DNA of 64,000 nucleotides from a virus (lineage: Duplodnaviria > Caudoviricetes): the IMG/VR virus record IMGVR_UViG_2565956925_000004, positions 6,955-70,954 of that record; one strand, 5' to 3'. Positions 2,350-59,728 of this stretch are shown here, piece by piece. Position numbers and translations under genes: made by a program. Each line of letters starts with the position of its first letter. Position 1 is the first letter of the stretch. The notes beneath the pieces were generated by a model that saw only the letters and a list, made by a program, of their open reading frames with translations, made no database searches and was not told the origin of the DNA.

Positions 2350-3006
2350 ATGTTAATTCTTGAACAATTTAAGCAAGCAGATCTTTCTGAAAAAATTGCT
2401 GCATTCACGAGTACAGTTATTTTGATTGGTATTTCTTATAAATTAGGATACTACTTTACTAAATCATTAGATAGTTTATGGATAATTCAGTTTTTTAATA
2501 TTTTTGATTTGGCATACGCTTCATTAAGACTGCTAATTTTATATTTTTTAATTCTTGTATTACATGACAAAGTTTTTGTAAAAGGTAGTGGAGAAAGAAA
2601 TATTATTAAATTTGGAATTGGACTAATGATAATATGTCTTTACTATATATACGAAATAATAACTGAAAAAGTTGCTTTTGGTTTTTTCTTTTCAGTATCT
2701 CTTTTTTTTGGAATTTTTTTTGCATTTTCAATGTACAATACTAGAGATTTTGTGAAATATATAAGTATAACGTTCTTGATTGTAGTCATTCCTTTTCTAC
2801 AGGGTATTTCGGATATCCAAAAAAATATACATCGTGCCGATTTACCAAAAGTTTTAATTAAGGAAAGCAAGCCAAATGAGGATTGGAGATTTTTGGATAA
2901 GGCAAATGATAAATTAATACTACTTAACCAGAACAACCCAAAAGAAATTAAAATTGTTGGAATGGATGAAGCCAAAAAATTCACAAATAGTAGAAATATA
3001 AAATGA
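2350..3006 (+). CDS. AT-rich multi-pass membrane protein (moron)
   Basis: About 5 hydrophobic segments plus a soluble C-terminal domain; similar to 29526-30248. Confidence 0.75.
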   Translation: MLILEQFKQADLSEKIAAFTSTVILIGISYKLGYYFTKSLDSLWIIQFFNIFDLAYASLRLLILYFLILVLHDKVFVKGSGERNIIKFGIGLMIICLYYIYEIITEKVAFGFFFSVSLFFGIFFAFSMYNTRDFVKYISITFLIVVIPFLQGISDIQKNIHRADLPKVLIKESKPNEDWRFLDKANDKLILLNQNNPKEIKIVGMDEAKKFTNSRNIK

Positions 3007-3372: not shown

Positions 3373-4863
3373 TTAAATTATAGTTAATCTAGCTAAATTA
3401 TATTTTTTTAATACCTCATAGTTAGTTAATTCTTTTAATTGCAAAAATCCAGCCCCATTTCTCCATTGGGGAAGATATACCTCTCCCCAACCACCAGCAT
3501 CTTTACTTTCATAGATAGTTTCAATAAAGCTTAAATCTTCAAATTTAAATAATTTAACAAGCTCATCATATTTAGATTTTTTTTCAGCCTTAGAAAAAAT
3601 TGTTAATGGGCGGGGTCTCCAACCTTTATTAAGTGCTAAATGAGGCCACCACATTATATGTGTTTTACTTTCTATAATTGTTATTGCAGCTGATTTAAGA
3701 TAAAGAATTATATCTATATCAACTAAATCATCAAAAGTCACAATTTCGTTATCAATATTTAATTTTAGAAATTCACTAATAGGTTCAATTTTATCTGGGT
3801 AAATTCTTTTAAGATAATTAAGACATTCTGAAGGTGCGAAAATCTCAAAACTTGTAGAACGTTCCCTAGAGTGAACTTTTAAATGCTTTGGAGAGTAGAT
3901 ATAAATTTCTTCAAGTAAATCTTCTATAGCTGAAAGTTCATCATTTTTTAGATAGACTGCTAATGTGGAAGTAAATATTTGATAAATAATTGATTCAAAA
4001 AGTGAAATATTTGCTATGGAGTATGATTCATTAGGTTCAACTTCTAAAAACTTTAAAGATAATTCTAGAAATTTTTTAAAATGTTTAAAATGTTTTTGAT
4101 CAGGGGCGTGGATACATAAAGAATTTAACAGGTGTTTATATTCTCTTATATGTGGTTGAACTAAATTAAAGTTTTTTAGAAGTGCTTTTGAAGCAAGTTC
4201 TTCATCATTTTCAGTAATAATTAATTTATCTAACTCACTTAGAAACTTATAAAGATAAGTATTGATTAAACCGCTAATATTCGATTTGCCTTTTTCGATT
4301 GCATCTAAAGCAAAACGGTATTCAGTATTAGTTCGTAAGGAAGTATCATTGGCATCTTCAGTTATGTAACTAGGTCTTTGACCTGATCTCTTTGGACGCT
4401 CATATTCAAATCTTCCATATATCCAACGGACAAGTTGTTCAAATTGATTTGGAAAGTTATCTGAGTCAGATAGGTCTAAATATATTCTACTTGAGTAAAA
4501 TACAGGTGGTTTTGCCCCAGGTTCAGCGATAACTGCAACAATATCTTTAGTTTCTTTTCTAGAGTAAAGTTCTTGAGATAGAATTGTTGATTCTGTTCCA
4601 ACACCACCTGATCGATTATTTGCTCTTTCTGTATACTTTTGATCAATAACCATAATAATTTTAGTAATACTTGGATCTAAAACCATGCCCTCCATGAACG
4701 CTATTGAATCTTGTCCAGGTCTTAAATCCCATTTATCAAAAATTACATGTATATCTGCATCGTGAAGAGAATGAGCTAATTCATCTACCCATTTTTCATG
4801 CTCTGGTGTGGTCCAGCTATATGAAATAAATACTTTTGGTTTTTGATCATGTATTTCAGTCAT
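3373..4863 (-). CDS. SEFIR/TIR-domain protein, probable anti-phage defence moron
   Basis: KVFISYSW..EH..WV..LA..L...DKWDL.PGQD...FME...GGVGTE N-terminal domain; AT-rich; opposite strand to its neighbours. Confidence 0.85.
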   Translation of the reverse strand: MTEIHDQKPKVFISYSWTTPEHEKWVDELAHSLHDADIHVIFDKWDLRPGQDSIAFMEGMVLDPSITKIIMVIDQKYTERANNRSGGVGTESTILSQELYSRKETKDIVAVIAEPGAKPPVFYSSRIYLDLSDSDNFPNQFEQLVRWIYGRFEYERPKRSGQRPSYITEDANDTSLRTNTEYRFALDAIEKGKSNISGLINTYLYKFLSELDKLIITENDEELASKALLKNFNLVQPHIREYKHLLNSLCIHAPDQKHFKHFKKFLELSLKFLEVEPNESYSIANISLFESIIYQIFTSTLAVYLKNDELSAIEDLLEEIYIYSPKHLKVHSRERSTSFEIFAPSECLNYLKRIYPDKIEPISEFLKLNIDNEIVTFDDLVDIDIILYLKSAAITIIESKTHIMWWPHLALNKGWRPRPLTIFSKAEKKSKYDELVKLFKFEDLSFIETIYESKDAGGWGEVYLPQWRNGAGFLQLKELTNYEVLKKYNLARLTII

Positions 4864-12693: not shown

Positions 12694-14979
12694 ATGAATA
12701 CTAATGATCAAAAGAAAATAATCAATTGGATTAAGAATGAAAAGTTCTCACATCTAAATTTTTTAGAAGAAGAATGGAATACTTCGGATAATGATTACTA
12801 TCCTGGATATTATTACTTTATACTTGATATGAAAAATGATAATAATGACTTTGTTTTTGATGAAATAGTTAAAAGAAAAGGATCGGAGGCAGAAGCCTAT
12901 TTTTATCTTGGTTATGTCGCAGGAAAAATATTTGATTATAATAAATCAAGACATACCGAATTAGGATTTTATCGAAAGGCTTTATTGATAGATAGCAATC
13001 ATGCAGATGCAAATTGGAGTGTATTTTATTATACAAATAAAATTGATCATTTGCTAAAGTGCTTAAACTATTTTTATAAGAATGATGAAATCCAAAAAAT
13101 TAAAAATGTATTAAATAATATATATGATCTAGATGGTTTAGAAGAACTGAGTAGAGAGGAATTGTTATTTTTAAAAAAAATATTAAATCATAATGAACTT
13201 AGAGGTAATCGAAATATTGATAGGATACTAATTGATTTATGTTTTTGCTTGGGTGATTTAGAAGAAGGATTGGAAATTATTAATAATGTAGATAAGGTAA
13301 ATTATAGAATTATTAAAAAGTATATTGATGAAAATTTAATTACTTTGGAAGACTCTCTTTTAAAAATAAATAGTTTTGAGTTAGGAAAAATAAGAAATTG
13401 TGACAAAAAGAAAATCTATGAAGTTTTTTTAAATGAAGCGAAAGCTGGAGGGCCTAACCCTACCATTGATGTGTTGATCCAAAAAGCATATGAGGCAAGA
13501 AATTTTAATGATGTTATTTCACACTTTGAAAAAGCTAACAAAGAAGATAAATTAATAGCAATAATAGATTCACATTTATATTATCTATTAGCTCAAATAG
13601 AGTTGGATAGAGATTCTAATAAGCAAATATATGAATATGTAATTAATAAGTTTAATGATTTAAATTTTCTAAAAAATGATAAAAATTCTTACTTTCTATT
13701 TTTAATATTGAAATTTAAATTAATATGTAAGGATCTTGAAAAAAAAGTGAAAGAAAATTATTTTTCGAATTTTTCAATTGAAAATTATTCAATTTTTAAA
13801 GAAGCAGAAGAAATATTAAAAAAAGATGAAGTTGTAAATAATATAATTTACACTAAATTAAAAGGAATGTTAAATGGTATTAAAGATAAATACCATAAAG
13901 AGAAATTAGAAGAGAAATTAAAAGAATATGGTGACAGTTTATCCTTAGAGGAATTTGAACTATCTGAATTTAATGAATATTGCTACGTAAGTATTTCATG
14001 TGAAAATTATGAAAATACAATTGAGAATATTAATAAATTTCATAAATTCAATAGGCCTACAATGAGCACTTTAAACTCTTTATCAATTTGTTATATGCAT
14101 ATTAATGATTATAAAAATGCTTTTAAATATTCTAAAGAAGCCTTGGAGTGTATGAGATCTTCGAAAGAATATGATTATATCGTCATTAATAATTATCTGG
14201 ATTTATATAAGAAGGCTAATTGTGAGGATGTTTCAAAAGAAGAATATAATAAACTTGTAGATGAATTTAATCTGGGCTTGGTGAAGAGTTTTAGGTGGAA
14301 TAATTTTCTTTCTACTAGATTTAATGTCCTATATAAATATTCTCCATTTAATGTTAATACAATCGATGCTTTAACAAATCAGTATTTCTTCTTACCTAGT
14401 AAAAGATTGTTAAATGATCCTATTGAATTACCGGAACTAAGTAAAATTCGACCAGATACACATATACTTGAAAATTATAATATATGTTCATTTTCTAATA
14501 ACGAGAATTCGATGTTAATGTGGTCACATTATGCTCAGCAACATCAAGGGATTATGGTTGAGTACTTCTTTGGAGGGGAGTTACCTTTTGGGTATGGAAT
14601 TAGTAAGGTTGACTATGCTGATGATAAAAAAAGATATAAAGATAAAGATGAGTATATATTCAATCAGTTTCTTTTAACTAAAAATAAAGATTGGTCTTAT
14701 GAAAATGAAGTCCGTCTTTTTACCTTTTTGAATAATAAAGTTGAATTTGAAACTTATAAATATCCTAATCCGGACAGGACAAAGATTAATGCATCTATTA
14801 AAAGTATTACATTAGGCTTAAATTTCCCTGAGGATAAAAAGAAATTAATTGGAATAATTGTGAACACTTTAAATGCTAAAAAGTTACCACATGAATCTAA
14901 GATTTCAGTTAAACAAGCTTTTTTGTGTGAAGATAATAGCTATGCTTTAGAGTATAGAGAACTATTACTAGATTATTAG
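12694..14979 (+). CDS. TPR-like repeat protein with C-terminal DUF2971-like domain (candidate defence moron)
   Basis: TPR-like helices (AEAYFYLG..YRKALLID; YKNAFKYSKEALE); LYKY..LNDP..ICSFS..LMWSHYA..H.G..TK..W.YE.EVR; very AT-rich. Confidence 0.75.
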   Translation: MNTNDQKKIINWIKNEKFSHLNFLEEEWNTSDNDYYPGYYYFILDMKNDNNDFVFDEIVKRKGSEAEAYFYLGYVAGKIFDYNKSRHTELGFYRKALLIDSNHADANWSVFYYTNKIDHLLKCLNYFYKNDEIQKIKNVLNNIYDLDGLEELSREELLFLKKILNHNELRGNRNIDRILIDLCFCLGDLEEGLEIINNVDKVNYRIIKKYIDENLITLEDSLLKINSFELGKIRNCDKKKIYEVFLNEAKAGGPNPTIDVLIQKAYEARNFNDVISHFEKANKEDKLIAIIDSHLYYLLAQIELDRDSNKQIYEYVINKFNDLNFLKNDKNSYFLFLILKFKLICKDLEKKVKENYFSNFSIENYSIFKEAEEILKKDEVVNNIIYTKLKGMLNGIKDKYHKEKLEEKLKEYGDSLSLEEFELSEFNEYCYVSISCENYENTIENINKFHKFNRPTMSTLNSLSICYMHINDYKNAFKYSKEALECMRSSKEYDYIVINNYLDLYKKANCEDVSKEEYNKLVDEFNLGLVKSFRWNNFLSTRFNVLYKYSPFNVNTIDALTNQYFFLPSKRLLNDPIELPELSKIRPDTHILENYNICSFSNNENSMLMWSHYAQQHQGIMVEYFFGGELPFGYGISKVDYADDKKRYKDKDEYIFNQFLLTKNKDWSYENEVRLFTFLNNKVEFETYKYPNPDRTKINASIKSITLGLNFPEDKKKLIGIIVNTLNAKKLPHESKISVKQAFLCEDNSYALEYRELLLDY

Positions 14980-15650: not shown

Positions 15651-15716
15651 TGGAACCTTTCTCATTTTGTTAGGTTAGGGAATATCAAAATAGCCTCATT
15701 GATAAGAGGTTATTTT
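15651..15716 (+). promoter_or_regulatory. GGAAC-N30 element, copy 3
   Basis: GGAAC 15652-15656, AAAAT 15687-15691, hairpin AAAATAGCCTC/GAGGTTATTTT holding the SD, ATG 15718. Confidence 0.8.
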
Positions 15717-15717
15717 C

Positions 15718-17034
15718 ATGGGCAGTCTTAATCTTGCAGCTGTAACAGCTACCACTCCATATATTAAAAAAATCCAATCTGCATTAGCAAAAGCAACAGG
15801 CCAAACTATCGTTACACCAGAGTTTCGAAAAATTAAACGCGTTGCTGGTGTCAGTGTTTTACCAGTTACTTTTTTCTTTTCTGGTGGTGCAACACTTACG
15901 CTTTATGTTCGTGCTTTAGCAGATGTGGTCAAGGCAGAACTTAATGAAAAAGTGATTGTGCTATCAGGTGATTTTAGTGATGACTATAAGCCAACTTTTG
16001 ATAATGCTGTTAATGGTGTAGCAAAGCTAATTCGTGAAGCACAATCACAGATTCAAGCTCAAAACAAACGTGAAAAAGTGCGTCTTCCTCCACGCCGTAC
16101 TTCAGTAGATCAAAAGGCTGTAGAGGTTGAAGAACAAGAACAAAAGCTTGATGAAGAATTAGTAAAACAAACGGCGCAACGGGATCAACTTTTGGAAAAA
16201 ATTGAACTAGCCAAACAGCAGCTTGGTAACAGTTCTATGACGGAGGCTGGTCAATCCGAATTGGGAAAGTCGATTAGTGAAATCGTATCAATTTCCACTG
16301 ATTCCAGCGCAAATATTTTCAAAGAAAATAAATTATCAAACCTTTCTGATACTGTAGAATTGACTATAGATAAGTCTATGAAGTGGAAGGACATAGTGTC
16401 GAAATATTTGGGAAGTGATCATCCACTTTCAATTGAAGAACAGGAAGAAATTGTTAAAGAATGGGTAAGTCAAAATGAATTAAGAATTCTAAAAAATGAT
16501 CTTTTAAACTCAGATGAGATTGTTAAAAAGTCAAAAGAATATGGTCTAACTTTACCAGAACAAATTGCAATTCGTTATTGGTCTGGAACAGGTTGTGGGG
16601 GAATTAATGGTGTTTTACATCGAACAATTCCTTATTCAAAAGAACAAGTTTTAATTGAGTTAAAAGGCATTTCTCTATTGCGACAAGCATTAGATAAATT
16701 GCCAAATTACAATGAGGAGGTCGTTTATTCGCGACAAGAATTACCTCAAAATTTACTTGAATCGATGCTGAATTATGAGACTTATATTACTGAAGGTTTT
16801 TTAGCAGCTAATAGACAATTTGACCTATTTTCTCAACGTAAAATTAGACTTATCATTCAATCCAAAACTGGAAAACACATTGAATGGATCAGTGAGAATT
16901 CCGATACAGAAGATGAAGTCTTGTTTAAAAATTCCACTTCGTTTAAAGTATTAAACATAGCAGATTCAACGACAGATGAATCTATTGAAATTGGTCATAT
17001 TTGGTTCTACTTAGAGGAGGATGATAATGAATAA
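15718..17034 (+). CDS. Hdf/DarA-N-like virion protein fused to an ADP-ribosyltransferase domain
   Basis: N-terminus K..RVAGVSVLPVTFFFSGGATLTLYVR..ADVVKAELN plus coiled coil resembles P1 Hdf/DarA-N; C-terminus AIRYW..INGVL..AL.KLP..VYSR..EGFL..GKHIEWIS...EDEVLF...FKV resembles VIP2/C3-type ART. Confidence 0.7.
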   Translation: MGSLNLAAVTATTPYIKKIQSALAKATGQTIVTPEFRKIKRVAGVSVLPVTFFFSGGATLTLYVRALADVVKAELNEKVIVLSGDFSDDYKPTFDNAVNGVAKLIREAQSQIQAQNKREKVRLPPRRTSVDQKAVEVEEQEQKLDEELVKQTAQRDQLLEKIELAKQQLGNSSMTEAGQSELGKSISEIVSISTDSSANIFKENKLSNLSDTVELTIDKSMKWKDIVSKYLGSDHPLSIEEQEEIVKEWVSQNELRILKNDLLNSDEIVKKSKEYGLTLPEQIAIRYWSGTGCGGINGVLHRTIPYSKEQVLIELKGISLLRQALDKLPNYNEEVVYSRQELPQNLLESMLNYETYITEGFLAANRQFDLFSQRKIRLIIQSKTGKHIEWISENSDTEDEVLFKNSTSFKVLNIADSTTDESIEIGHIWFYLEEDDNE

Positions 17035-17245
17035 AGTAATGTTAAATATGCCTCTTGAATTACAGATGAAACGAGCTAAAGAAGCTGGTTTAACATTGCA
17101 AGAATGGCAAAAGGCAATGGAAATTAAATTAGCGAAAATGCGCCGTAGTGCTGTTCAATCAATGAGACCTACAGGTAAATTTGTTTCAGTTTCTCGTGCT
17201 GATGCTGAACGTTTCCAACGAAAAATGGATTCAGCAATTGCATAG
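17027..17245 (+). CDS. Small basic protein translationally coupled to the ART fusion
   Basis: GAGGAGG RBS, overlaps the ART stop; followed by a terminator. Confidence 0.65.
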   Translation: MNKVMLNMPLELQMKRAKEAGLTLQEWQKAMEIKLAKMRRSAVQSMRPTGKFVSVSRADAERFQRKMDSAIA

Positions 17246-17298
17246 ATTGCTTCAAGAATTTTTTAAAAAAAGGCTGCTTAATTGCAGTCTTTTTTATT

Positions 17299-17338
17299 GG
17301 AAGTTGAATTAGTTTGTTCGAATAAATTAGGGAAAAAT
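17299..17338 (+). promoter_or_regulatory. Orphan variant GGAAG-N30-AAAAT with no downstream gene
   Basis: GGAAG 17299-17303, AAAAT 17334-17338, flanked by two near-identical terminators. Confidence 0.5.
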
Positions 17339-17393
17339 AAGTTAGAGATTTTTTAAAATTAATAGACTGCTAGATTGCGGTCTTTTTTGTTTT

Positions 17394-17457
17394 GGAACCT
17401 TATAAATATCGAGAAGGTTCAAACAACTACTCTTATAAAAATCCAAATTAAGGGTAG
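17394..17457 (+). promoter_or_regulatory. GGAAC-N30 element, copy 4
   Basis: GGAAC 17394-17398, (T)ACTCT 17429-17433, hairpin CTACTCTTA/TAAGGGTAG, ATG 17462. Confidence 0.7.
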
Positions 17458-17461
17458 TACC

Positions 17462-17818
17462 ATGCAAATTCAAATCGGTATAGATATTGTCTTAATTCTT
17501 GCATTTTCTGCGTATCTTTATTTCATAACGGGGTGGAATGGCAAAAATAAAGCGGCATCAATAAAACAATTTCGCCAAATTCCAATTAACCTTTTATTTA
17601 AAGAAATAAGATGGATGTACTTCGCTTGCATGGCATGCGTAATGATCACAATTATTTTAGTTGATTGGCGAATCTATTACGTTGCTTGCTACTTTGATGC
17701 ATTAAGCGTTTCGCTTTGGATCTTTCTAATCTATTTTTCTATTTTTTCTACTTATCAAATTGGCACTGCAATTTTACTAAAGCTTTTGACTATTTTTAGC
17801 AATAGAGCAACTTCCTAA
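17462..17818 (+). CDS. Small membrane protein (3 TM)
   Basis: Hydrophobic ORF; ATG 17462 with AAGGG RBS preferred over the TTG start at 17375. Confidence 0.6.
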   Translation: MQIQIGIDIVLILAFSAYLYFITGWNGKNKAASIKQFRQIPINLLFKEIRWMYFACMACVMITIILVDWRIYYVACYFDALSVSLWIFLIYFSIFSTYQIGTAILLKLLTIFSNRATS

Positions 17819-29525: not shown

Positions 29526-30248
29526 ATGAATTTTATTATCGAATATTTAAAAAGAGCCTCTTTTATTGAGATACTAACAATATTGTTTTTTTTAAGTGTT
29601 GGTGTCTCTTTAACTTTTAAAATTGGGTTTTATAATGCTTTGGGGGTTGGTTGGTATATACAAAATTTAACGCCTCAAATTCTTTTTATCTCATCTTTTA
29701 AAATTATTTTAATTTTTTTAGGTGGGATCTTTGTCGGATGCATCTTTGGATTAAAATTTTCTGAAAGAACTGTATCTGTTATTTTTTTATGCTTTATAGC
29801 TTTGTATACAAGCTTTAATGGATTTATTCAGAACTTATTAAGTATTAATTTAGAGATCTCTAATTATTTTGATGTGGTTTTGTTTATATTTTATTTTTTA
29901 ACATCCATGTTTTTAGTTTCGTTAGGTTATAAAAAAAGAAAATATAATGACCCTTTGTTCGTTGGTCCATTAATTAGAATCAAACGAGAAGAAGTAATAT
30001 TTGATAATGTATTTAAAATTGTAATTATCTTATTAATATTTTGTTTGCCGTATGTTAGTGGATATGATGCTGGAAAATTAGTCAAAAATAACAAGGTAAA
30101 TAGTGTGGTAGTCATAAAGAATGACTCAAGAAAATGGCATTTAATTGATATGAGTGGAGATAAGGTATTGTTGAAAGAGATTAATCCTAAAGAAGATGTT
30201 TTTAAAGTTCTGGAATATAAAGATATAGACACCATAACAACAAGATAA
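29526..30248 (+). CDS. AT-rich multi-pass membrane protein (moron)
   Basis: About 5 TM segments plus C-terminal WHLID..GDKVLL domain; homologous pattern to 2350-3006. Confidence 0.75.
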   Translation: MNFIIEYLKRASFIEILTILFFLSVGVSLTFKIGFYNALGVGWYIQNLTPQILFISSFKIILIFLGGIFVGCIFGLKFSERTVSVIFLCFIALYTSFNGFIQNLLSINLEISNYFDVVLFIFYFLTSMFLVSLGYKKRKYNDPLFVGPLIRIKREEVIFDNVFKIVIILLIFCLPYVSGYDAGKLVKNNKVNSVVVIKNDSRKWHLIDMSGDKVLLKEINPKEDVFKVLEYKDIDTITTR

Positions 30249-31108: not shown

Positions 31109-31186
31109 GGAACCGACCAGAATAAGTAAAAATGGCTCATGTCAGACTTTCTTCAACTTACATCGCAAGCCAAAGGCTGGTTTAAA
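31109..31186 (+). promoter_or_regulatory. GGAAC-N30 element, copy 8
   Basis: GGAAC 31109-31113, (C)AGACT 31144-31148, ATG 31187. Confidence 0.7.
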
Positions 31187-38593: not shown

Positions 38594-41500
38594 ATGAATG
38601 GTTATAAACGTGCAAAGATTTTAAGTTACAACGCAAAAGGTCGTACTGCACAAGTACACATTCATGGTTTAACTGATGGCGCAAGTGAAGGCATTACGGC
38701 AACTTTTGCCTATCCAGTCGGTGATAGTGATTTAGATACAGAAATACAAATTGTGGATGGGGAAGACGTCTATGTCTTCTTTGAAAACGGCAATGAAGAA
38801 CGTCCAGTAATCCATAGTTATGTCAGTCACGGAGACGGCGCGATTGTAGGTGTGCGCCGTATTCGACAAGACAATATTGAATTTATTTCTAAAGAAAATT
38901 TAAAAGTAGATTCTGGCACAACTGTATCTATTAAAACGCCGTTGATGAATGTGCAAGCTAATACACAACAAACTGGTAATAGCACATTAACGGGAAATAG
39001 CACTGTAGTAGGTAATACTTCAGTTGCAGGTAATAGTTCTGTTGCAGGCAGTATGGCCGTTGGTACAACGCTTACTGTAGCAGGTGTGCCTATTGATCCT
39101 AAAGCTATTGAGGGTGCATTTAAAGACGCTCTTGATAAGTTAGAGAGTTTAAAAGAAGACTTAAAAGAACAAGGCGAAATAATTGATGAAAACAAAGATC
39201 AGATAAGCCAAGAAATTGATGAAAAAATAAAAGAAGTAGAAGAGTTAATTGATAATATTAAAGATTCTGATGCCTATAAATTGCTTGAAGAAGGTATTAA
39301 TCACATTGATGAAGAGGTGCAAAAAATACATGACCAAGTAAAAGAAGTAGGTCAGATTGCACAAAATAAAGTTGATGAAATTCGGGCTTATATTGATCAA
39401 GAAATTGTCGATACCAAACTGATTGTTGAACAGCATGCAAATGATGCAAATATTCGTTTGGATGAAGCCAATCAACGTATTGATCAATCAATTCAGGCAA
39501 ACGAAGCGTTGGTAGCTGATGCTCAACAACGGGCTATCCGCGCTGAGAAAGAACTCGATGACAAAATTGGTTTCATCAAGAGAGAAACGGATTCTATTAT
39601 TGCTGATGTTAGAAGTGATTCTGATGAAATTCGCTTGGTCGCAGAAAATGCGAAAAAAATTGCAGATCAAGAAGTTCTAGACCGTAAAAAACAAGCAGCT
39701 GACACTCTAATTGTTATTGATCAAACTAAGGCCGCTTTAAAACAAGATATTGATCAAAACTTAGTTAAAGCTGGTCAAATGATTGATGATGCTAAATTAG
39801 CATTGGGTGAAGAAACAAATACTCTCATTAATCAAAAAATTGAACCAATAGTAAGCCAAACTGAAGCTGCAGTTAAGAAAGTAGATCAAGTAGCTGCACA
39901 ATATGTTGAACTTGATAAGAAAGTTGATTCTGGCTTTCTGGCTGAAGCTGAAGCACGTGCAAATGATAAAGAGGCTTTAACTCAAAGTTTTGAGCTTAAG
40001 TTTGCTGAAATGCAAAACGAATTGGGTAAATCAAACGCCTTAATTTCAGAAGAATCTAAAACTCGTGCAGCTCAAGACAAAGCAATTACTGAACAAATTA
40101 GTATTGCTCAATCTCAAATTGGAGATAACAAAGCTGCCATTAATAGTGTTGAACGAACTGTAGTTGACCTTACCAAATCTGTTGCTGAAAAAACTGATCA
40201 AATACAAGCCAGTTTAGACACCACAAATGCAAGTTTATTAAGTGCGAATGAGTTAGCGCGGATGCAATCACTTGGTAAACCTTTACGTGATGATCCGACG
40301 TTTCTATCGGGGAATGGGGGATTAAGTGCCTATGCGGTACCAGCAGGCTCAACACTAACTCGACAAGCCAAATCAACGGATAACCCCGTAAATAGTACCC
40401 ATGAGATGCTTTTAAGATCTACAGCATCTTTAGGTGGTGGCTGGTATCCAACTGTTCCTACACTTGTAGCTGCGCCTAATAAAACGTTTTTAATAAAACA
40501 AATTATTAAAATGCCAAAAGGGACATATTTATTACCTGTTGGCAATGCTACAGGTACGGGTGGTTATTTACGGGTACTTGGAAATAAAGAAGGTACAGGC
40601 AAGTTTGAGGTTTACTACTCTGTTGTTCAGTGTGGCTATGATGCACCAGCAGCTATCCATGGGCATTTCCGTGTTATTGCTGGCACTAATCCACCTTTGC
40701 CAAGCACTACAAGCCCAGTTGATGTAATCCTTGCTGATTATGAGGTCTGGGATATTACAGCACTAAATGACACCATTCCTAAAACATGGCGTGATCAAAT
40801 TACTGGTAATGCCTCATATATCGAAAAGGTTGAATCATCTGTAAAACTTGTTGATGAGAAACTTGTTTCAGAAGCAAAAAAACTTGAAGAACTAAAGACT
40901 GACTATAATTCAAATAAAACAAAAACAACGTCTGATTTAGCGACAATTACTCAGTCAGTTTCTGATGGAGATAAAGCCTTATCATTACGTATCGACCAAA
41001 CGAAAGCAGCTCTGGAAGAAGCAGATCGTCAGTCTAATTCAAATATTCTAGAAGTTACTGAGTCACTAGCTGAATTTGAACAGTCTACCACGACGAAATT
41101 TACAAAACTTGATACAAGTATCTCGAAGGAAAATTTGAAGGTACAAGGCCAGATTGTAGATGTCCAAAAAAGTGTATCTACTTTAGAAAGTAATACAAAC
41201 ACTAAAATATCTGGCCTTTCTTCTTCACTTAAAACTACTGATGATATTGCTAAACTGGCTTTCGATAATGCAGCCGAAGCGCAGCAAACTGGTACAACAG
41301 CGGTAAAAGCTACTGAAGCACTTTCTCAGAATTTATTAAGTCTCAAGTCTCAAACTCAAGTAACTACTGGTGTGAGGGCAGTAGTAACAGCAAAAGGAAT
41401 TGATGACTGGTCAACTTGGCGAACTACAGGTGAAGCTAAAGTACTTCAAGATTCTGATGCATTTGGCGGTTATATTCTTGAGCTTGGTAATAATGCTGGC

Positions 41501-52799: not shown

Positions 52800-54314
52800 G
52801 TGAGTGTTAAATCAATTTTTACTCAAACACATGCACCACATCAAAGCCGATTAGTACCTGGTTTTGATTCAATGGTGAATAGTGGCGCTTGTTCAATTGG
52901 ATTTATTAAAGGTGATTACCGTCAAATTAATGCCTTAGTCACTGAAGACTACACGGAAAATGACCTCTGGCGAGTGATTAACTTAAAAGGGCAGAAGAGC
53001 GGAATCGAAGCTTATGATTCAGTTGCCATACTTGGTGCAATTGATGATCAGCATGCTGGTGAACTAGCAATCTTACAGTTTGGACGCATGTTTGACGCTT
53101 GTGTTACAGATGTAATTGAAACAAATCAATTTGGTCTTAAACGCCACCTATCTTCCAAACAATTTAATTTGTCTGGGTCTAAACCAATTCAAAGATGGCA
53201 ATTAGAGAAATTACAGAACGTGATTGCTGCAGAAACACCTCAATGGGATGGTATCAGTTTAGTTTCTCATGATGGTGATACAGCAAAACTTCTTTTAGAT
53301 ATGCAGCGAAATGATGACCATAGTCAGCTGCTAAGTAAATTTGATGGGTTGCCTACGCTATTATCTAGTCTGGAAGTAGAAGAAGCTCATTATGATTCTA
53401 TTATTGTCGATTACCAGCATTTAGAGCAGCTGTCTGCTATTTTGCATCACGCTATGGATCAGTTTTCTAAAACTGGTGTTAAAGTCATTAACGTTACTGA
53501 AAGTAAGCCCTTCAAGCATAAAAAAGTACTTCAAATTGCGCTTACTTATGATTTTGATGACGGTCAAAACTTCACAATCCTTTTTCATAAGCCAGATCGA
53601 TTTTCAAAGAAAATTAGTTCTGCAGATTCATTAATTTCATGGAAGATCTTAATGAACAATCGCGATATTACAGCTGCAATTCAGCCTAATCAGGGAGAAG
53701 GAATTTCAATTCCTGTTCTCGCTGGTCGAATCATGAAGTTAATTAACCAAAATAGTAATCGTTTTAAACGCTTACAAGCTAAAAAAGCCGAAAAAGCTAA
53801 AGCTTTGGCTGAAGCGGAAAATCGGGTTTTGGAAAAGCAGAGTTTATTGGCATCTTTAAAGCAAGAAATAGAAAGTTTGCAATCTGAATTAGATAATTTA
53901 GCTATTTCCAAAAGTAAACCGACACCAGAAGTGACACCTGAACCGGCACCGGAGGTGACACCTGAACCAGCACCAGAGGTGACGCCTGAACCGGCACCAG
54001 AGCCGACACCAGAAGTGACACCTGAGCCAACACCAGAAGTGACACCTGAACCGGCACCAGAGGTGACACCTGAACCAGCACCAGAGGTGACGCCTGAACC
54101 AGCACCAGAGGTGACACCTGAAGAACTACAAAATCTATCAGCTTCGGATACTTCAAATCCTTTGTATAAGTCAATCATTGAAGGACAAGTAGGCGTAAGT
54201 TTGGAAGTACTAGAACAAGTTCGAGATGAGGCTGAGAAGAATTTAGAAGACCCTTTATTAATTCCAGCTGTAACTGAGTTGCTTAACCAAATTAAAGTTA
54301 AGGAGAGCGTTTAA
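52800..54314 (+). CDS. darA: DarA-like defence-against-restriction virion protein
   Basis: F.DGQ..TI.FH.P....KI...D.L..W..L.N.RDIT..I.P..G..I....LA.RI.KL...NS..F DarA-N pattern; coiled coil; Pro-rich linker. Confidence 0.7.
   Translation: MSVKSIFTQTHAPHQSRLVPGFDSMVNSGACSIGFIKGDYRQINALVTEDYTENDLWRVINLKGQKSGIEAYDSVAILGAIDDQHAGELAILQFGRMFDACVTDVIETNQFGLKRHLSSKQFNLSGSKPIQRWQLEKLQNVIAAETPQWDGISLVSHDGDTAKLLLDMQRNDDHSQLLSKFDGLPTLLSSLEVEEAHYDSIIVDYQHLEQLSAILHHAMDQFSKTGVKVINVTESKPFKHKKVLQIALTYDFDDGQNFTILFHKPDRFSKKISSADSLISWKILMNNRDITAAIQPNQGEGISIPVLAGRIMKLINQNSNRFKRLQAKKAEKAKALAEAENRVLEKQSLLASLKQEIESLQSELDNLAISKSKPTPEVTPEPAPEVTPEPAPEVTPEPAPEPTPEVTPEPTPEVTPEPAPEVTPEPAPEVTPEPAPEVTPEELQNLSASDTSNPLYKSIIEGQVGVSLEVLEQVRDEAEKNLEDPLLIPAVTELLNQIKVKESV
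53919..54122 (+). repeat. 17 x 12-bp tandem repeat encoding (P/V)(T/A)PE
   Basis: PTPE/VTPE/PAPE units read directly. Confidence 0.95.
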
Positions 54315-55822
54315 TGTTACTTAAATTTATTACGCCTTCTGTAATAGCTACGGACCCTTTGATTGTAATTGATCAAATGATTAGTTTCTTTAAACCAACG
54401 AAGTCCTTAACAGGGCTTTTACGGGGCAGAACTAATAATGTTAAGACAGCCAAAGGGGAAAAGATTTCTACTGTCTTCGCCTTAGTCGATATTGATCAAG
54501 TCATTGCGTCTCATACGGCGACAGGTGCAGAAAACCCAAACTATCCTCAAGAATTACAACCGCGAGATCGTAGCCGTGAATCATCACAAGCATGGGTACA
54601 TAAAACCGCTAATGATTTAGATCCCGAAAGCCTTGGCCGCTCAGGGCGGGCAGATACAGGAGCACCGATAACTGGAGACGATTTAGTTGTGGAGTCAGGA
54701 AACGGTCGAACCATGGCAATCAAGCTTGCATATGAGCAGGGCACCGCAGATGAGTATAAACAATGGTTAATTGATGAAGCCGATTACTTTGGTTTTAGTT
54801 CTGAGCAAGTACAGGCCATTTCTAAACCAATATTGATACGTATTCGTACCACTGAGATTGATAGAGCACAATTTGCTATTGATGCAAACCAAGATGATAA
54901 GTTGTCATTTACAGCTACAGAACGAGCTAAAGCTGATGCTAAACGATTAGATGATAATTTACTGGCTCTTTTTAACCCGAGTGAAGACGGTGATTTATTA
55001 GCAGTAAGTAATCAAAAGTTTATTCAAGGTTTTTTGACTAAATTAGGTGATACGGAAGCAGCCCAGTACACCACGAAAGATAAAAAACCAACACAAGCAC
55101 TGATAAACAGAATCAAGGCCGCAATTTTTAGTAAAGCGTACAATGATGATCGTTTGCTAGAAATGATGGCTGATCATACAAAACCAGATCTTCAAAACAT
55201 GCTTAATGCGTTGGGTGTTGCTGCGCCTAAATTTATTGAAGCACAAGCTATAAGTCGTGGAAATGTTCAAGATATATCGGATCAAATCGTTGAAGGTATG
55301 GAGCAAGCCATTGATCAACGTGTTGCTAATGCAATTATTGATGCAGCAAATACCATTTTATCTGCAAAGCAAAATGATCAAGATATTGTTGAGTTTGTAA
55401 AGCAGCAAGGGCTTTTTGAGGATCTAGGGGAAGGTGTTGCTGAGCTCGCCGTGTTTCTCGCCAAGAATAGCCGCAGTTCAAAAAAAATGAGTATGTTATT
55501 TAAAGCTTTAGCTGAATTTGCAGAGAAACAGGCTATAGTTAGCAGTAATGTAGGTTTGTTTGGTGAGCCTGAACCAGTAAGTGTCAAAGATGCTATCCAA
55601 TATGCACAACAAGTGCTTGGTGATGATTTCATTAGTGTGCAAATGTACGATTCTTTGATTGAGTCTAGTAGCTCATGTAGATCTAAAATAATTCGATTAA
55701 CCAGAGAAGGGGCCGAACGTTTCCACAATGCTTTGAAAATTAAAATTACTCAAGTTGATGACATTGAAAAAACAGAAGTGAACAAAATTAATGACATTCT
55801 TTTCGAAGGGTTAGATATTTAG
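54314..55822 (+). CDS. ddrB: DdrB-like ParB-superfamily protein
   Basis: NP.YPQELQPRDRSR...L.SGRAD.GAPI..D.VVESGNGRTMA; downstream of darA as in P1. Confidence 0.75.
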   Translation: MLLKFITPSVIATDPLIVIDQMISFFKPTKSLTGLLRGRTNNVKTAKGEKISTVFALVDIDQVIASHTATGAENPNYPQELQPRDRSRESSQAWVHKTANDLDPESLGRSGRADTGAPITGDDLVVESGNGRTMAIKLAYEQGTADEYKQWLIDEADYFGFSSEQVQAISKPILIRIRTTEIDRAQFAIDANQDDKLSFTATERAKADAKRLDDNLLALFNPSEDGDLLAVSNQKFIQGFLTKLGDTEAAQYTTKDKKPTQALINRIKAAIFSKAYNDDRLLEMMADHTKPDLQNMLNALGVAAPKFIEAQAISRGNVQDISDQIVEGMEQAIDQRVANAIIDAANTILSAKQNDQDIVEFVKQQGLFEDLGEGVAELAVFLAKNSRSSKKMSMLFKALAEFAEKQAIVSSNVGLFGEPEPVSVKDAIQYAQQVLGDDFISVQMYDSLIESSSSCRSKIIRLTREGAERFHNALKIKITQVDDIEKTEVNKINDILFEGLDI

Positions 55823-55897: not shown

Positions 55898-58800
55898 ATG
55901 TCCATCTTAAAGCTCAAACCAATCACTAAAGACACTGTATTGGTTGCGATTTATTACATGATTGATTTCATGCATTTTCAGAGCAATATTGCTCGGTTTT
56001 TCCTTCTTATCATCCATAAGCAAATAGAACTTAACTTGTCTGTAGCGAAGCAAGCATTATCCTTTGCACGTCAAGAAAGTGACTTTCCAAAATTGGATGA
56101 AGTAGTTGAAGTCTTATATGCGGAAGCTATCAAAAACATTGATGAATCAGTTATTGAACACCTAAATAACGGTTCGAGAAATGTTATTGAGCAGTTGGAG
56201 ATTATTGTCTCCCTTTTTGCATGTGAAAAAGAGCTGAAGCCATACACAACTAAAAAGAATAAAACGCTACAGGTTATTGGTCTAAAAGGCATCAAATTAA
56301 CAAAAGCTAAAGAATATGACCCTTATGCCTTTTATTCTCAGGGTGAAATTTTAGTACGTTCAAAACATCTTAAAGCCATTCCAGACTCACTTCTTTCCGA
56401 AGATCAGCAACTAGTAAAAGGGTTATTCTCCTATGTATCAAATACCAATTCAGATGTGGAATCAGTTGGCGAATTTCGTTTCAGATCCAGAGGACCAATT
56501 GTTTCTGCAAATGGATCAGGAAAAAATGAACTCGAGACTGCAGAAGCAATCAGAAATGATGGAGAAACTGGGGATCTCAGAAACAGTAGTACTGGCTTAT
56601 CAAAAAGTGATGATGCAAGTTTACTTGGCGGCCGAAATCCAAGAAATGAATCTTCAGATGGAGATAGTAGAACCAGTACTAACCGGATTAACAGCAGCGG
56701 AAGCGGTGAACTATCTGGTAAGAGATCATCTCTTAAACGAGCAAGAGATCGATCAATTGTACAAACTGCTAAATCAGTTAGAGCTGCCATAGATGAAAAG
56801 CTGGAAGCTCAATTAAAAGCAGATAATGTTGAAACTGTTTGGAGTGATGCTTCAAATATTGATGAAGCTTTGCCATATCTACAACCTGCACAGCGTGGGG
56901 ATGTTTTTAAAACGGAAAAGCACTTAATCGAGGAAAATAAGAAGGGTATTCTTTTTACAAATGGCACAGGTACAGGCAAAACCTTTACTGGGCTGGGTGT
57001 TGCAAAGCGTTTTATTAATGCTGGTCTTAAGAATATTTTGATTGTTACCCTAAACGATAAAATCGCTAATGACTTTGTAAAAAGTTCAAGTCCTTTGCAT
57101 ATAAAGGCTTATAAATTAAAAAGCATTAAAGATAACGGCGGTGATGAGCACTCAGTAGTGGTCACAACATTTGCTAATTTTGGTCAAAACACAAGTTTGG
57201 TTCATAAACATTGGGATCTTATTTTAATTGATGAAGCCCATACTCTTTCACAATCATCTGATGGTAAATCAACTGCAGCCTTAAACAAGCTACGAGCATT
57301 AACAGGTCATTTGCGAGGTTTTAATGAATGGTTTGATAATAAATTTGAAGATCAGATGCCTACTGAAGAACTCGATGAAAATGGCAAAGAAACTGAACAA
57401 TACCTAACTGCTTATAACAAAATGCAGGTCCTTAGAAATGAACAAAGAAAAATCTGGAATCTGAACTGGAAACACCAGAAAAGTAAGTGCAAAGTTGTTT
57501 TCTTATCTGCTACGCCATTTAGTTATCACTTTTCACTTGATTGGGCGGAGGGCTATTTATTTGATTATATGTCACCTTCTGTATCTATTGATGACCAAGG
57601 TAATTTAGCAGAAGGTTTTGGTAAGGCTCGAGAGCACTTTTATATGGGAAATCTTGGATATCGAAAACGATATGGAAAGTTGACCCGTCCAGAGGCCAAG
57701 GTGGATACGGGTGTACTTGAAAGACAGTTTGCCGAAAATCTTAAAAACACTGGTGCCATGTCTGGACGCGATTTAGAAGTTAATTTTGACTATGATCGTA
57801 AATTTATTCTAATAGGCTCTCGTGTTGGTGAACTTATTGATGAAGGTTTAACTTATCTTCGCAATGGTTATAAAGAAATCGAAGGACATAAAACACGAAC
57901 TTTTGAAGAATGGGCTGCTCAGACCGGAAAACCAACAACAGGCTGGGGACGTCATGCATCGATGCAAGAATATGATCGTTTATTCACTGGAAATCGTTTT
58001 AAAAACATATACGAAATTATTGCAAAGCGATTTGATTATTTAGCAAGACGCCGTTTGTTAGAAGCTATTAAAGCTGAAGCTTGTGTTGATATGGTGAAAA
58101 AGCACTTAGCATTAGGCCGTAAAGTAGTTATTTTCCATGATTATAATGAAGGTGGTGGTTTTGCACCTTTCTTAATTAGTCAGTTTGATATCGAAAAATA
58201 TGAGAGCCATTTAAGAGATGATATTGAGCTTGAATATAATTCATTCAAGGAAAATCGCCCAGATCTAGTGAATCTCAATCTTGACTACGATTCACCAGTT
58301 GAGACTTTAAAGAAAGCATTTCCAAATGCTCTATTATTTAATGGCCGCATTTCAAAGCAACAACGTGAATCTAATGTAGGGTTATTTAATACAGATGGTA
58401 GCGGGCACGATATTCTTATTCTGCAGTCAGATGCTGGTTCAACTGGAATTAGCTTGCATGATACGACTGGTAAACATCAGCGAGTTCTAATTAATATTGG
58501 GCAGCCAACAAAGCCTGCCAAGTTAAGACAGACAGAAGGGCGTATCTATCGAACAGGACAGGAATCGAATGCTATTCAGAGATACTTAACCACTGGTACT
58601 GCATGGGAACGTGCAGCATTTGCAGACACGATTGCTGGACGTGCAGAAACGGTAGATAACTTTGCAAAAGGTGCTGACGCTGTAGTAAGTATCAAAGAAG
58701 CGCTAATTCAGGCTTATGAAGATGCAAAATATGAAGAGCCTAGTCATAATGATGGTATTGGTGGTAAAGCATATGATGAAGAAAATGCCCGTATTGCTAA

Positions 58801-59728
58801 GCTAACGCCATTTGATCAAGCACTAACGTTCTACTATGCAAAAGGCAAACGTTCTGAAAGTCGTGATAACCGTGAAGGTAAGGAATGGTATGCAACGCCT
58901 GAACCACTTGGATTCAAAATGATTGAATGGGCAGGGGTGCACACAGGTGATTCCGTGCTTGAGCCAAGCGCTGGTGATGGCGCTATTGGTCGATTTGTTC
59001 CGCAGGATGTAGAACTGACAATGATTGAACCGACTGAATCTTTAGCTAGTCGTGCTCAAATGGCTAACACTGGTGCAAAAGTAATTGTTGATACATTCGA
59101 GTCTTTAGAAACTTTAAATAAGTACCATGCGATTGTGATGAATCCGCCATTTGGTCATGCTGGTTCCTTGGCAATTCAACATATCAAGAAAGCTTTTGGT
59201 CATCTTTATGATGGTGGGCGTATTGTTGCATTGGTACCACGTGGTTCGATGGATTCAAAAGTTGACGAATTTATTGAAAGCACACCTGGTGCAATTATGA
59301 CAGCTGAAATTTGGTTGCCTCAATCAACCTTTAAAAATGCTGGTACCGCCGTTTCAACTCGCATCATCATTATTGAAAAACATGCAGGCGCTAATGATGT
59401 TCCAATAACACGAGAATTAGACTTTACGCACCTTACAAGTGTTGAAGACCTCTTTTCAGAAATCCGTGACATCGCAATGCCTCCTAGAAAACTACGCATT
59501 GATGAGCAGCTTGCTAAGTATGAACTTTATGTCAGAACTGAACGTAGTAAGTATGTTTTCAATGGTGACGGCGTTGATAAACCTCAGATTAAGAATATCA
59601 TGTTGAAATTCTGGGGCTCAGAAGTTAATGAGTTTGATGAAATTGTTATGCCATATAACAAGTCTGCTGAAATCATTAAGAAGATTGATGAATTTGAGCA
59701 AGAAAACAATATTAAGCTAGCTGCATAA
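55898..59728 (+). CDS. DarB-like SF2 (strawberry-notch type) helicase plus adenine methyltransferase fusion
   Basis: GTGTGKT, DEAH, SAT, GSTGISLHD, QTEGRIYR; MTase motif I LEPSAGDG and motif IV NPPF. Confidence 0.85.
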   Translation: MSILKLKPITKDTVLVAIYYMIDFMHFQSNIARFFLLIIHKQIELNLSVAKQALSFARQESDFPKLDEVVEVLYAEAIKNIDESVIEHLNNGSRNVIEQLEIIVSLFACEKELKPYTTKKNKTLQVIGLKGIKLTKAKEYDPYAFYSQGEILVRSKHLKAIPDSLLSEDQQLVKGLFSYVSNTNSDVESVGEFRFRSRGPIVSANGSGKNELETAEAIRNDGETGDLRNSSTGLSKSDDASLLGGRNPRNESSDGDSRTSTNRINSSGSGELSGKRSSLKRARDRSIVQTAKSVRAAIDEKLEAQLKADNVETVWSDASNIDEALPYLQPAQRGDVFKTEKHLIEENKKGILFTNGTGTGKTFTGLGVAKRFINAGLKNILIVTLNDKIANDFVKSSSPLHIKAYKLKSIKDNGGDEHSVVVTTFANFGQNTSLVHKHWDLILIDEAHTLSQSSDGKSTAALNKLRALTGHLRGFNEWFDNKFEDQMPTEELDENGKETEQYLTAYNKMQVLRNEQRKIWNLNWKHQKSKCKVVFLSATPFSYHFSLDWAEGYLFDYMSPSVSIDDQGNLAEGFGKAREHFYMGNLGYRKRYGKLTRPEAKVDTGVLERQFAENLKNTGAMSGRDLEVNFDYDRKFILIGSRVGELIDEGLTYLRNGYKEIEGHKTRTFEEWAAQTGKPTTGWGRHASMQEYDRLFTGNRFKNIYEIIAKRFDYLARRRLLEAIKAEACVDMVKKHLALGRKVVIFHDYNEGGGFAPFLISQFDIEKYESHLRDDIELEYNSFKENRPDLVNLNLDYDSPVETLKKAFPNALLFNGRISKQQRESNVGLFNTDGSGHDILILQSDAGSTGISLHDTTGKHQRVLINIGQPTKPAKLRQTEGRIYRTGQESNAIQRYLTTGTAWERAAFADTIAGRAETVDNFAKGADAVVSIKEALIQAYEDAKYEEPSHNDGIGGKAYDEENARIAKLTPFDQALTFYYAKGKRSESRDNREGKEWYATPEPLGFKMIEWAGVHTGDSVLEPSAGDGAIGRFVPQDVELTMIEPTESLASRAQMANTGAKVIVDTFESLETLNKYHAIVMNPPFGHAGSLAIQHIKKAFGHLYDGGRIVALVPRGSMDSKVDEFIESTPGAIMTAEIWLPQSTFKNAGTAVSTRIIIIEKHAGANDVPITRELDFTHLTSVEDLFSEIRDIAMPPRKLRIDEQLAKYELYVRTERSKYVFNGDGVDKPQIKNIMLKFWGSEVNEFDEIVMPYNKSAEIIKKIDEFEQENNIKLAA
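56433..56792 (+). CDS. Candidate overprinted 119-aa helical protein (+1 frame inside the DarB-like linker)
   Basis: ATG start with AAAGGG upstream; amphipathic-helical composition; exactly spans the disordered S/G/R-rich linker of the main frame. Confidence 0.5.
   Translation: MYQIPIQMWNQLANFVSDPEDQLFLQMDQEKMNSRLQKQSEMMEKLGISETVVLAYQKVMMQVYLAAEIQEMNLQMEIVEPVLTGLTAAEAVNYLVRDHLLNEQEIDQLYKLLNQLELP

Follow-up and report, generated by a model that had tools for sequence, protein, structure and literature searches.

We analysed a gene encoding an Hdf-like scaffold fused to a C-terminal ADP-ribosyltransferase (ART) fold, followed by an open reading frame (ORF) of 72 amino acids (aa) that overlaps its stop codon. 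The gene lies at 15718..17034 of a 64-kb stretch of viral DNA (hereafter the window, i.e. positions 6,955 to 70,954 of the 70,954-bp IMG/VR provirus record IMGVR_UViG_2565956925_000004), which, judged by its gene content, comes from a temperate Acinetobacter myophage of the vB_AbaM_ABMM1 type. The C-terminal part of the protein belongs to a cassette that is exchanged on a conserved scaffold, the small ORF is linked to the ART, and both genes are under purifying selection. With moderate confidence, we read the locus as an Hdf-based analogue of the MuF polymorphic toxins, i.e. a head-packaged and ejected ART-fold effector accompanied by a cognate partner or immunity protein; both homologies, and also the cassette structure, on which this reading builds are practically certain. 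An initial annotation, made from the sequence alone, had proposed that the Dar packaging route is used to inject an ART effector, with the small ORF as inhibitor or chaperone. Comparative evidence (scaffold homology, Dar genes, MuF-fused relatives and a linked ORF) fits this proposal, but catalysis is doubtful.

The Hdf-like scaffold

The fusion gene and its two main parts are as follows.

15718..17034, plus strand: fusion protein of 438 aa, composed of the Hdf-like scaffold, a linker and the ART fold
15718..16269, plus strand: Hdf-like scaffold, aa 1-184, with a basic N-domain and a helical region, isoelectric point (pI) 9.05, delimited by the phrog_1620 match and the DNA homology boundary
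16432..17031, plus strand: ART-fold domain, aa 239-438, acidic, pI 4.7, delimited by AlphaFold2 (AF2) modelling and VIA

Residues 4-171 matched the PHROG profile phrog_1620 ('Hdf-like antirestriction', E 2e-28, profile positions 7-174 of 200) and residues 1-226 matched phrog_6398 (E 6e-105), which bears out the Hdf/DarA-N-like N-terminal domain announced by the initial annotation. Residues ~105-175 fall on the helical stretch of the Hdf profile, and weak matches to coiled-coil families were obtained with the ABMM1 orthologue. By the profile match, the scaffold is homologous to P1 Hdf; Dar genes are carried by the same phage (see below). Homologues of the scaffold matched the DarA_N family below threshold (E 7.5e-5 to 0.025), and the 438-aa protein gave no match to PF04233 (Phage_Mu_F), the domain that defines MuF proteins.

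In phage P1, according to passages of PMC12810830, the C-terminal helical domain of Hdf binds the inner capsid and DarA while its N-domain faces the DNA; each head holds 55 Hdf-DarA pairs, which are gone from emptied heads and leave with the DNA. In the protein studied here, the profile was matched up to position 174 of 200, and the helix domain that binds capsid and DarA in P1 lies in the Hdf C-terminus.

Selection was assessed with four relatives. The dN/dS ratio was 0.13-0.22 for the ART gene (dS 0.44-0.73) and 0.15-0.41 for the small ORF. These low values indicate that both are real genes, and purifying selection on the ART implies that some function is maintained, be it ADP-ribosyl transfer or another.

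An exchangeable C-terminal cassette

16270..17461, plus strand: cassette that is exchanged, made up of a linker, the ART domain, the small ORF, a terminator of its own and a spacer; blastn showed no homology between it and PBECR1-type loci

The blastn alignments with the ABMM1 locus (L001) and with an A. baumannii record typed as plasmid (L002) end at 16269, i.e. at aa 184, and start again at 17462, the ATG of the next gene. The ABMM1-type orthologue, of 313 aa, is no truncated version but ends in a PBECR1 nuclease domain (PF18809, 46-49 bits for a cut-off of 27.6 bits, E 7e-12).

A search with residues 1-184 retrieved 24 proteins of 240-767 aa. Their cargo comprised the ART domain (438-446 aa proteins), a diverged ART variant of 424 aa (P0161), PBECR1, LPD3 (PF18798, E 1e-8), that of a protein named phosphoribosyltransferase (PRTase) by NCBI and several C-termini that belong to no family; one cluster of the PBECR1-type scaffold protein alone contains 874 member sequences. 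Among 54 IMG/VR loci with the scaffold, 45 were PBECR1-type, five ART-type, three encoded proteins of 462-463 aa with a weak Pribosyltran match (E 0.042) and one was cut at 97 aa. The 45 loci were typed by their ABMM1-type C-terminal sequence, the Pfam scan covering ABMM1, P0169 and P0170.

The initial annotation had called for a survey of C-terminal variation in homologues, and this survey revealed ART, PBECR1, LPD3, PRTase-like and family-less domains on one scaffold; what it had overlooked is that the C-terminus is itself one of several interchangeable cassettes. The scaffold follows the domain logic of polymorphic toxins.

As a separate observation, the proteins P0171-P0175 and the one encoded at L020 carry the motif W-D-E-x-x-H-P-R-D-x-x-G-K-F just after the scaffold helix, and the ART and PBECR1 types are without it. 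The motif may be a processing or docking site.

The ART fold and its active-site motifs

The AF2 model (aa 231-438, built from a 40-sequence alignment) reached a mean pLDDT (predicted local distance difference test) score of 94.1. Foldseek returned 145 matches in the PDB at E<=1e-3, and the top ones were all R-S-E-class ARTs (XopAI 1.5e-11, 6dre_B 4e-10, Certhrax, HopU1, Vis and C3). VIA-align gave a Z of 20.0 to 6drh_F, at 2.1 Å root-mean-square deviation over 175 residues, followed by XopAI (18.8), HopU1 (18.6), ExoS (17.6) and ART2.2 (16.4). In the viral structure library BFVD, the best matches were 'head morphogenesis'/MuF, portal-fused and Alt-like phage ARTs. At the sequence level, phmmer against the PDB found 6dre_B/6drh_B (E 3e-5) and XopAI (E 0.1), and the best NCBIfam match was XopAI (E 1.5e-6).

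An exhaustive HMMER search yielded 181 ART relatives at E<=1e-3. Pfam was run on 41 of them, picked from the 150 listed so as to cover the longer proteins and the top stand-alone ones: PF03496 and/or PF01129 was present in 40 of the 41, including the close relatives P0004, P0006 and P0009, which pass PF03496, and an N-terminal Phage_Mu_F domain in 23. The model and these relatives identify the C-terminus as an ART fold of the R-S-E class, from the Alt/VIP2-type family that is associated with MuF. The ART domain of the initial annotation, which had named the lack of an ART fold as a ground for rejection, is thus upheld as a fold (pLDDT 94.1, Z 20.0, 181 relatives).

Motif columns were counted in 151 proteins (the query and the 150 listed of the 181 matches) aligned to the family hidden Markov model. 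The aromatic-arginine and aliphatic-arginine motifs are called arom-R and aliph-R hereafter, the latter as defined in passages of PMC6829252.

16729..16734, plus strand: S338-R339; in the arom-R column, R in 137 and S in 11 of 151
16804..16812, plus strand: A363-A364-N365 at the STS site; first column S in 143 and A in 5, third column S in 89, T in 49 and N in 8
16846..16848, plus strand: R377 of I376-R377 (aliph-R), retained and invariant in alignment A2 of the subclade described below
16909..16917, plus strand: E398-D399-E400, the [QE]-x-E motif of the ADP-ribosylating turn-turn loop, retained; E in 142 and 149 of 151 at its two positions

The motifs VYSR (aa 336-339), AAN (363-365) and EDE (398-400) of the initial annotation are all present, but its use of R339 as the canonical arginine does not hold, because S338 occupies the invariant column. 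R339 falls in the next column (G in 56 and R in 40 of 151), and the HMMER alignment to 6dre_B also offsets the arginine by one residue. The protein therefore has the fold, aliph-R and ExE of the R-S-E class, and has neither its arom-R nor its STS.

Ten proteins make up a 'S-R / [SA]-[AT]-N' subclade: the 438-aa protein, a near-identical twin, the stand-alone ARTs P0004-6, P0008, P0009 and P0045, and the MuF fusions P0007 and P0092. The arginine at +1 is invariant in all ten. (In P0007, of 805 aa, an intein-like insertion seems to split the MuF part; the match to PF14890, E 5e-5, stays below the cut-off.) The genome-contig scan with A2 returned none of the loci of the stand-alone subclade ARTs (P0004-P0009); the viral and metagenome scans for those loci returned close relatives and four distant ART loci (L008-L010 and L016), nothing else. 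The small ORFs 3' of the ART genes at L008-L010 look unrelated, by eye, to the 72-aa ORF.

By these motifs, the domain lies between canonical enzymes and XopAI. Its ExE motif suggests arginine as the acceptor. Whether it is a true ADP-ribosyltransferase we regard as evenly balanced.

The small ORF and its linkage to the ART

17027..17245, plus strand: 72-aa basic partner ORF, pI 10.7, net charge +8, its start overlapping the ART stop codon by 8 nucleotides (nt)
17014..17020, plus strand: Shine-Dalgarno sequence GAGGAGG of the small ORF, within the end of the ART gene, 6 nt 5' of the ATG

The basic 72-aa ORF overlapping the ART stop codon was already in the initial annotation, and its limits stand (ATG at 17027, stop at 17245). 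Its length equals that of database homologues, and it contains 7 Arg and 8 Lys. By tblastn on the 54 IMG/VR loci, it was detected in 5/5 ART-type loci and in 0/49 others; the metagenome loci L013 and L014 likewise carry both ART and small ORF. It also stays intact where the ART is damaged, i.e. where a 1-bp loss in a G5 run shifts the ART frame (L007/L067 and P0165, one variant and not independent cases) and where the ART is deleted from 16302 to 16905 (L022, L073 and L074, with one common junction).

In another Acinetobacter genome (G148), a MuF-ART with canonical RR, SAT and ExE motifs, whose ART domain is 34% identical, is followed by an overlapping 75-aa ORF. The N-terminal 37 residues of the latter match the small ORF (BLASTP E 7e-5 in a single comparison, hhalign probability 62%). 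A profile search added P0182-P0185 to the family, among which P0185 has a G148-type N-terminus but ends like the 72-aa ORF, with ERFQRKMDSA. The family occurs in 3 of 247 Acinetobacter genomes, each time beside an ART or an ART remnant. The small ORF is thus linked to the ART, and we consider it rather probable that it encodes a specific partner of that domain; their charges are complementary (pI 4.7 for the ART vs 10.7 for the small protein).

Structural searches gave little. The AF2 model of the small protein was of moderate quality (pLDDT 70.6), Foldseek returned nothing below E 0.8 for it, and the ESM Atlas held no usable match. A ribbon-helix-helix-like N-terminus was considered and dropped as unsupported, the Arc and NikA rows standing at E 4-4.6 only.

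Expression signals

15651..15657, plus strand: TGGAACC box, 61 nt 5' of the ATG of the fusion gene, candidate late-promoter or regulatory element
15704..15709, plus strand: Shine-Dalgarno-like AAGAGG, 8 nt 5' of the same ATG, recognised from the sequence
17266..17295, plus strand: terminator-like hairpin and T-run closing the ART/small-ORF unit (RNAfold -15.4 kcal/mol)
17364..17399, plus strand: second terminator-like hairpin (17364-17383) and then a TGGAACC box (17393-17399), ahead of a membrane-protein gene

The GGAAC promoter of the initial annotation corresponds to a TGGAACC box that is present, enriched and conserved, its role as a promoter being putative. The window contains 13 copies for 4.7 expected, a number reached in 0 of 100 shuffles. 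Seven of the ten plus-strand copies (15651, 17393, 31108, 36527, 50467, 55826 and 62858) lie 31-74 nt 5' of ORF starts, i.e. those of the fusion gene, the next gene, the ORF at 31139 and the tail tube, portal, DarB-like and holin genes. The box is also conserved 5' of the orthologues at L001 and L020. This distribution fits co-regulation with structural genes. No sigma-70-like site was found 5' of the fusion gene, and a sigma-54 reading of TGGAAC was dropped because the box sequences have no GC element at the right spacing. The box often stands directly after a T-run.

The two similar hairpins are ~100 nt apart. A hairpin of the 17364-17383 type, which the first hairpin resembles, lies directly 3' of the PRTase-type gene at L020, and the cassette may be exchanged by recombination at this element.

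Contigs from RNA libraries were used for presence only; they give neither expression level nor strand, and the parts they leave uncovered count as no evidence. Contig X15 covers 16400-16625. Contigs X16-X18, from three RNA-seq libraries of one organism, represent a ~90%-identical strain with the ART deletion; they span the stretch from the scaffold to the small ORF, with their ends at 17236-17252, a weak hint that a transcript ends there.

Phage context and Dar genes

PHROG matches in the window cover replication, antirepressor, baseplate, sheath, tube, portal, PmgG-like head morphogenesis and holin genes. Three Dar-type genes directly follow the portal region.

52800..54314, plus strand: DarA_N-domain protein, 504 aa (PF18788 E 1.1e-21, phrog_1620 E 1.1e-5)
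54314..55822, plus strand: DdrB-ParB protein (PF18763 E 4.6e-36)
55898..59728, plus strand: DarB-like helicase/methyltransferase protein, 1,276 aa (ResIII, Helicase_C; phrog_10089 'DarB-like', E 6e-9, a weak match)

With DarA_N, DdrB-ParB and DarB-like genes, the phage has a Dar gene set of the P1 type, and the DarA_N protein is a candidate for the DarA-like partner of the scaffold. BLASTP detected no similarity between the scaffold and this protein. Two minor observations concern the module: the DarA_N protein bears VTPE repeats at aa ~406-433, and the PHROG profiles matched here are 2-4 kb long, so that several ORFs may share the DarB-like function.

Proposed function and alternatives

Hdf homology, the phage's own Dar genes, MuF-fused relatives and a small ORF that travels with the ART fit the idea of a capsid-internal carrier. 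In the mechanism we propose, which builds on the homology to P1 Hdf, the scaffold (first ~184 residues) would attach to the capsid's inner surface, probably together with the DarA_N protein of the phage, and would exit along with the DNA during infection. The cargo at its C-terminus would project into the lumen among the packaged DNA and enter the cell when the genome does; an ART-fold cargo would then have a host protein as its target. The 72-aa protein would most likely bind the acidic ART domain and neutralise it, either where phage is being produced or in superinfected lysogens, in parallel to the immunity proteins of MuF toxins that are small and non-enzymatic, as in Bxa-Bsi. Transcription would probably be late, from the TGGAACC-box element common to structural genes. 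Packaging and ejection of the 438-aa protein are, in our estimation, quite probable.

Several points weigh against a packaged, catalytically active effector with a dedicated partner. Packaging and ejection, NAD+-dependent activity, partner binding and the promoter are what we infer; for ABMM1 virions, passages of PMC10345192 describe liquid chromatography-tandem mass spectrometry of six proteins. Pfam DarA_N (PF18788) did not match the 438-aa protein at E<=0.1, and Pfam ART (PF01129) scored 13.5 bits (E 0.044), below its gathering cut-off of 22.3 bits, PF03496 not being reported. The canonical arom-R is a serine and STS reads AAN, a change of the kind found in XopAI (FTG and AAS), and the first STS position varies between S and A among close relatives (SAN at L004; AAN in the window, L005 and L006), which means that it is not constrained. 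The common junction at L022, L073 and L074 points to one ancestral deletion rather than repeated events. The small ORF had no match in Pfam (even at E<=10), PHROGs, NCBIfam or PADLOC. Finally, its homologue P0182 (75 aa, 62% identical) is found on 103 conjugative Acinetobacter plasmids (MOBF/MPF_F; for example NZ_CP019218.1, 4001-4228), where the gene adjoins a ParB_N gene and a Y-family polymerase gene; the one plasmid searched for the ART family had no match to it. Such a stand-alone homologue implies that the small protein may have a function of its own. The phage collection contained no match to P0182, and orphan immunity genes are usual in polymorphic toxin systems, as stated in passages of PMC11699363.

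Loss of the canonical arginine and of the STS serine, as in XopAI, makes catalytic competence doubtful and gives rise to the best-surviving alternative: the ART fold could be a pseudoenzyme or have changed its chemistry, acting as an arginine- or peptide-binding module, an NADase or a nucleic-acid-modifying variant, with the small protein as its ligand or pseudosubstrate. The serine and alanine at columns that are otherwise R in 137 and S in 143 of 151 proteins agree with it, as does the rank of XopAI (first in Foldseek and NCBIfam, second in VIA), a protein that has FTG, AAS and VLE with an intact ExE and whose crystal cleft, according to passages of PMC6829252, is unable to bind NAD+ and holds an arginine peptide. 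A small partner with 7 Arg and 8 Lys also agrees with this alternative. However, I376-R377 is kept here, unlike in XopAI, the +1 arginine is invariant in the ten subclade members, ExE is intact, purifying selection is strong, and the partner family also stands beside a MuF-ART with canonical RR, SAT and ExE. We regard this alternative as doubtful, though worth keeping in mind.

It is unlikely that the small ORF is functionally untied from the ART, i.e. a small basic DNA-binding or regulatory protein lying in the cassette by chance. Stand-alone homologues beside a ParB_N gene on the 103 plasmids, retention of the ORF where the ART is lost, its basic character and a helix-turn-helix-like segment in the AF2 model (residues 10-41; weak Foldseek rows to HU, Arc and NikA, none significant) would suit this view, but it does not sit well with the presence of the ORF in every ART-type locus (5/5 vs 0/49), the overlap of its start with the ART stop codon, a homologue coupled to a MuF-ART with a different carrier domain and its position beside an ART or a remnant in 3/3 occurrences in the genus genomes.

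A cytoplasmic toxin-antitoxin or abortive-infection-type prophage module, outside the virion and with another role for the Hdf-like part, is improbable: the toxin-then-small-overlapping-ORF arrangement, the orphan partner copies on plasmids, an adjoining variable moron region with defence candidates (PDC-S31 at 12694-14979; bSEFIR and PD-T7-5 elsewhere) and, weakly, culture-derived RNA-library contigs covering the ART-deleted variant would agree with it, but neither protein matches PADLOC, the gene heads a block with baseplate genes and has a TGGAACC box as the portal, tail-tube and holin genes do, a homologue of the scaffold has been observed within P1 capsids, and the ART family is mostly fused to head proteins.

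A bolder extension of the capsid-borne effector, which we put forward as speculation and hold to be quite unlikely in its entirety, is that temperate Acinetobacter myophages possess a second polymorphic-effector system parallel to the MuF toxins. The Hdf scaffold would deliver exchangeable enzymes, of which each virion would hold tens to hundreds of copies provided that the stoichiometry is like that of P1 Hdf; the rewired ART subclade (S-R, [SA]-A-N, ExE) would have a changed substrate or chemistry; the Arg-rich 72-aa partner would be an active-site pseudosubstrate inhibitor; and the orphans on the 103 conjugative plasmids would be acquired immunity against the injected effector.

Relation to known systems

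The closest parallel is with the MuF toxins (Bxa and Bsi, BAH; passages of PMC5576092, PMC11699363 and PMC9503650), which also combine a head-associated N-terminal module with interchangeable C-terminal toxin or enzyme domains in temperate phages, include the same ART family and have a small ORF immediately downstream. MuF toxin genes are mostly followed by small ORFs (passages of PMC5576092), and Bxa-Bsi has been tested experimentally (passages of PMC11699363). The present system differs in its carrier, which is Hdf/DarA-N-like and without a MuF domain, in having no ADP-ribosylhydrolase immunity gene and in its non-canonical arom-R and STS.

With P1 Hdf/DarA, it shares the N-terminal ~170 residues that match the Hdf-like profile and the presence of DarA_N, DdrB-ParB and DarB-like genes in the same phage. 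P1 Hdf, however, is a 203-aa protein without an enzymatic domain, whereas here the last ~26 positions of the Hdf profile are replaced by the linker and the ART; moreover, the gene is not adjacent to that of the DarA-like protein, and the host is Acinetobacter. To our knowledge, the only roles in which P1 Hdf has been observed to date are structural and antirestriction ones.

The DarA-N phage polyvalent proteins, as presented in passages of PMC5512222, likewise join a DarA-N-type domain to effector domains (PBECR, PRTase, LPD and ART classes) with predicted delivery alongside the DNA. They are giant and multi-domain, whereas here a short Hdf-type scaffold bears a single cargo within a one-locus cassette that includes a partner ORF.

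T4 Alt is an R-S-E-class phage ART that is packaged in the head and injected (passages of PMC9503650), and Alt-like proteins are among the BFVD fold matches; Alt differs in its packaging route and in having no partner ORF, and sequence similarity to it is at the fold level only. The T4 route relies on a capsid-targeting sequence and the scaffold core.

The Tre1-Tri1 pair (6DRE/6DRH, the toxin being named Tre1 in passages of PMC6829252) provides the best structural match (Z 20.0) and the best PDB sequence match (E 3e-5), but Tre1 is delivered by a type VI secretion system and has canonical YRG and STS motifs. Unlike the 72-aa protein, the immunity protein of Tre1 is large and of the ADP-ribosylhydrolase (ARH) type. 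XopAI (6K93/6K94/6KLY; passages of PMC6829252) has the same fold (Z 18.8), has lost the canonical arginine, begins its STS with AA and keeps ExE; it differs by the loss of aliph-R (VLE), where I-R and an additional Arg at +1 are kept here, and by being a type III secretion effector of a plant pathogen.

No description of an Hdf-ART fusion was found in the passages covered of the literature on Hdf and ADP-ribosyltransferase or in those of PMC5512222, whose figures and supplements may list DarA-N architectures; the terms 'Hdf' and 'DarA' are absent from two broad surveys, one on NAD+/ART systems of phages and one on MuF toxins. Our results suggest that the Hdf-like scaffold is a second, previously undescribed carrier for injected phage effectors. 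T4 Alt is known to be a phage enzyme that is packaged in the head and injected, and the same has been inferred for MuF fusions and polyvalent proteins. Should the Hdf scaffold prove to carry cargo in general, it would offer a second, genetically simple system for effector loading and delivery, predict what the PBECR1-type orthologue, abundant in A. baumannii prophages, does there and supply a set of natural cargo variants that all occupy one locus. The S-R/AAN subclade with its conserved partner is, in addition, a test case for the drift of the R-S-E active site under purifying selection.

Neighbouring genes

Three genes of the window match PADLOC defence entries. The 761-aa TPR/DUF2971 protein encoded immediately 5' of the fusion gene (12694-14979, plus strand) matches the candidate system PDC-S31 with its C-terminus (E 2.8e-28); its slot has a low GC content (0.27-0.30) and is variable, other genes being found there in the relatives L005 and L007. 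On the minus strand, a 496-aa TIR/SEFIR-domain protein (3373-4863; bSEFIR E 1.6e-81, Pfam TIR_2 E 9e-17) is a candidate for a prophage-borne anti-phage defence, and a 354-aa protein encoded between the DarB-like gene and the PmgG-like head gene (59823-60887) matches PD-T7-5 (E 6e-119).

The plus-strand ORF at 38594-49099 encodes 3,501 aa and matches tail, baseplate-spike and host-range PHROGs; it is unusually large for a ~71-kb phage. Lastly, the plus-strand ORFs at 2350-3006 and 29526-30248 both match phrog_18775, of unknown function (E 2e-11 and 5.6e-102, respectively), and are possible paralogues located in different modules.

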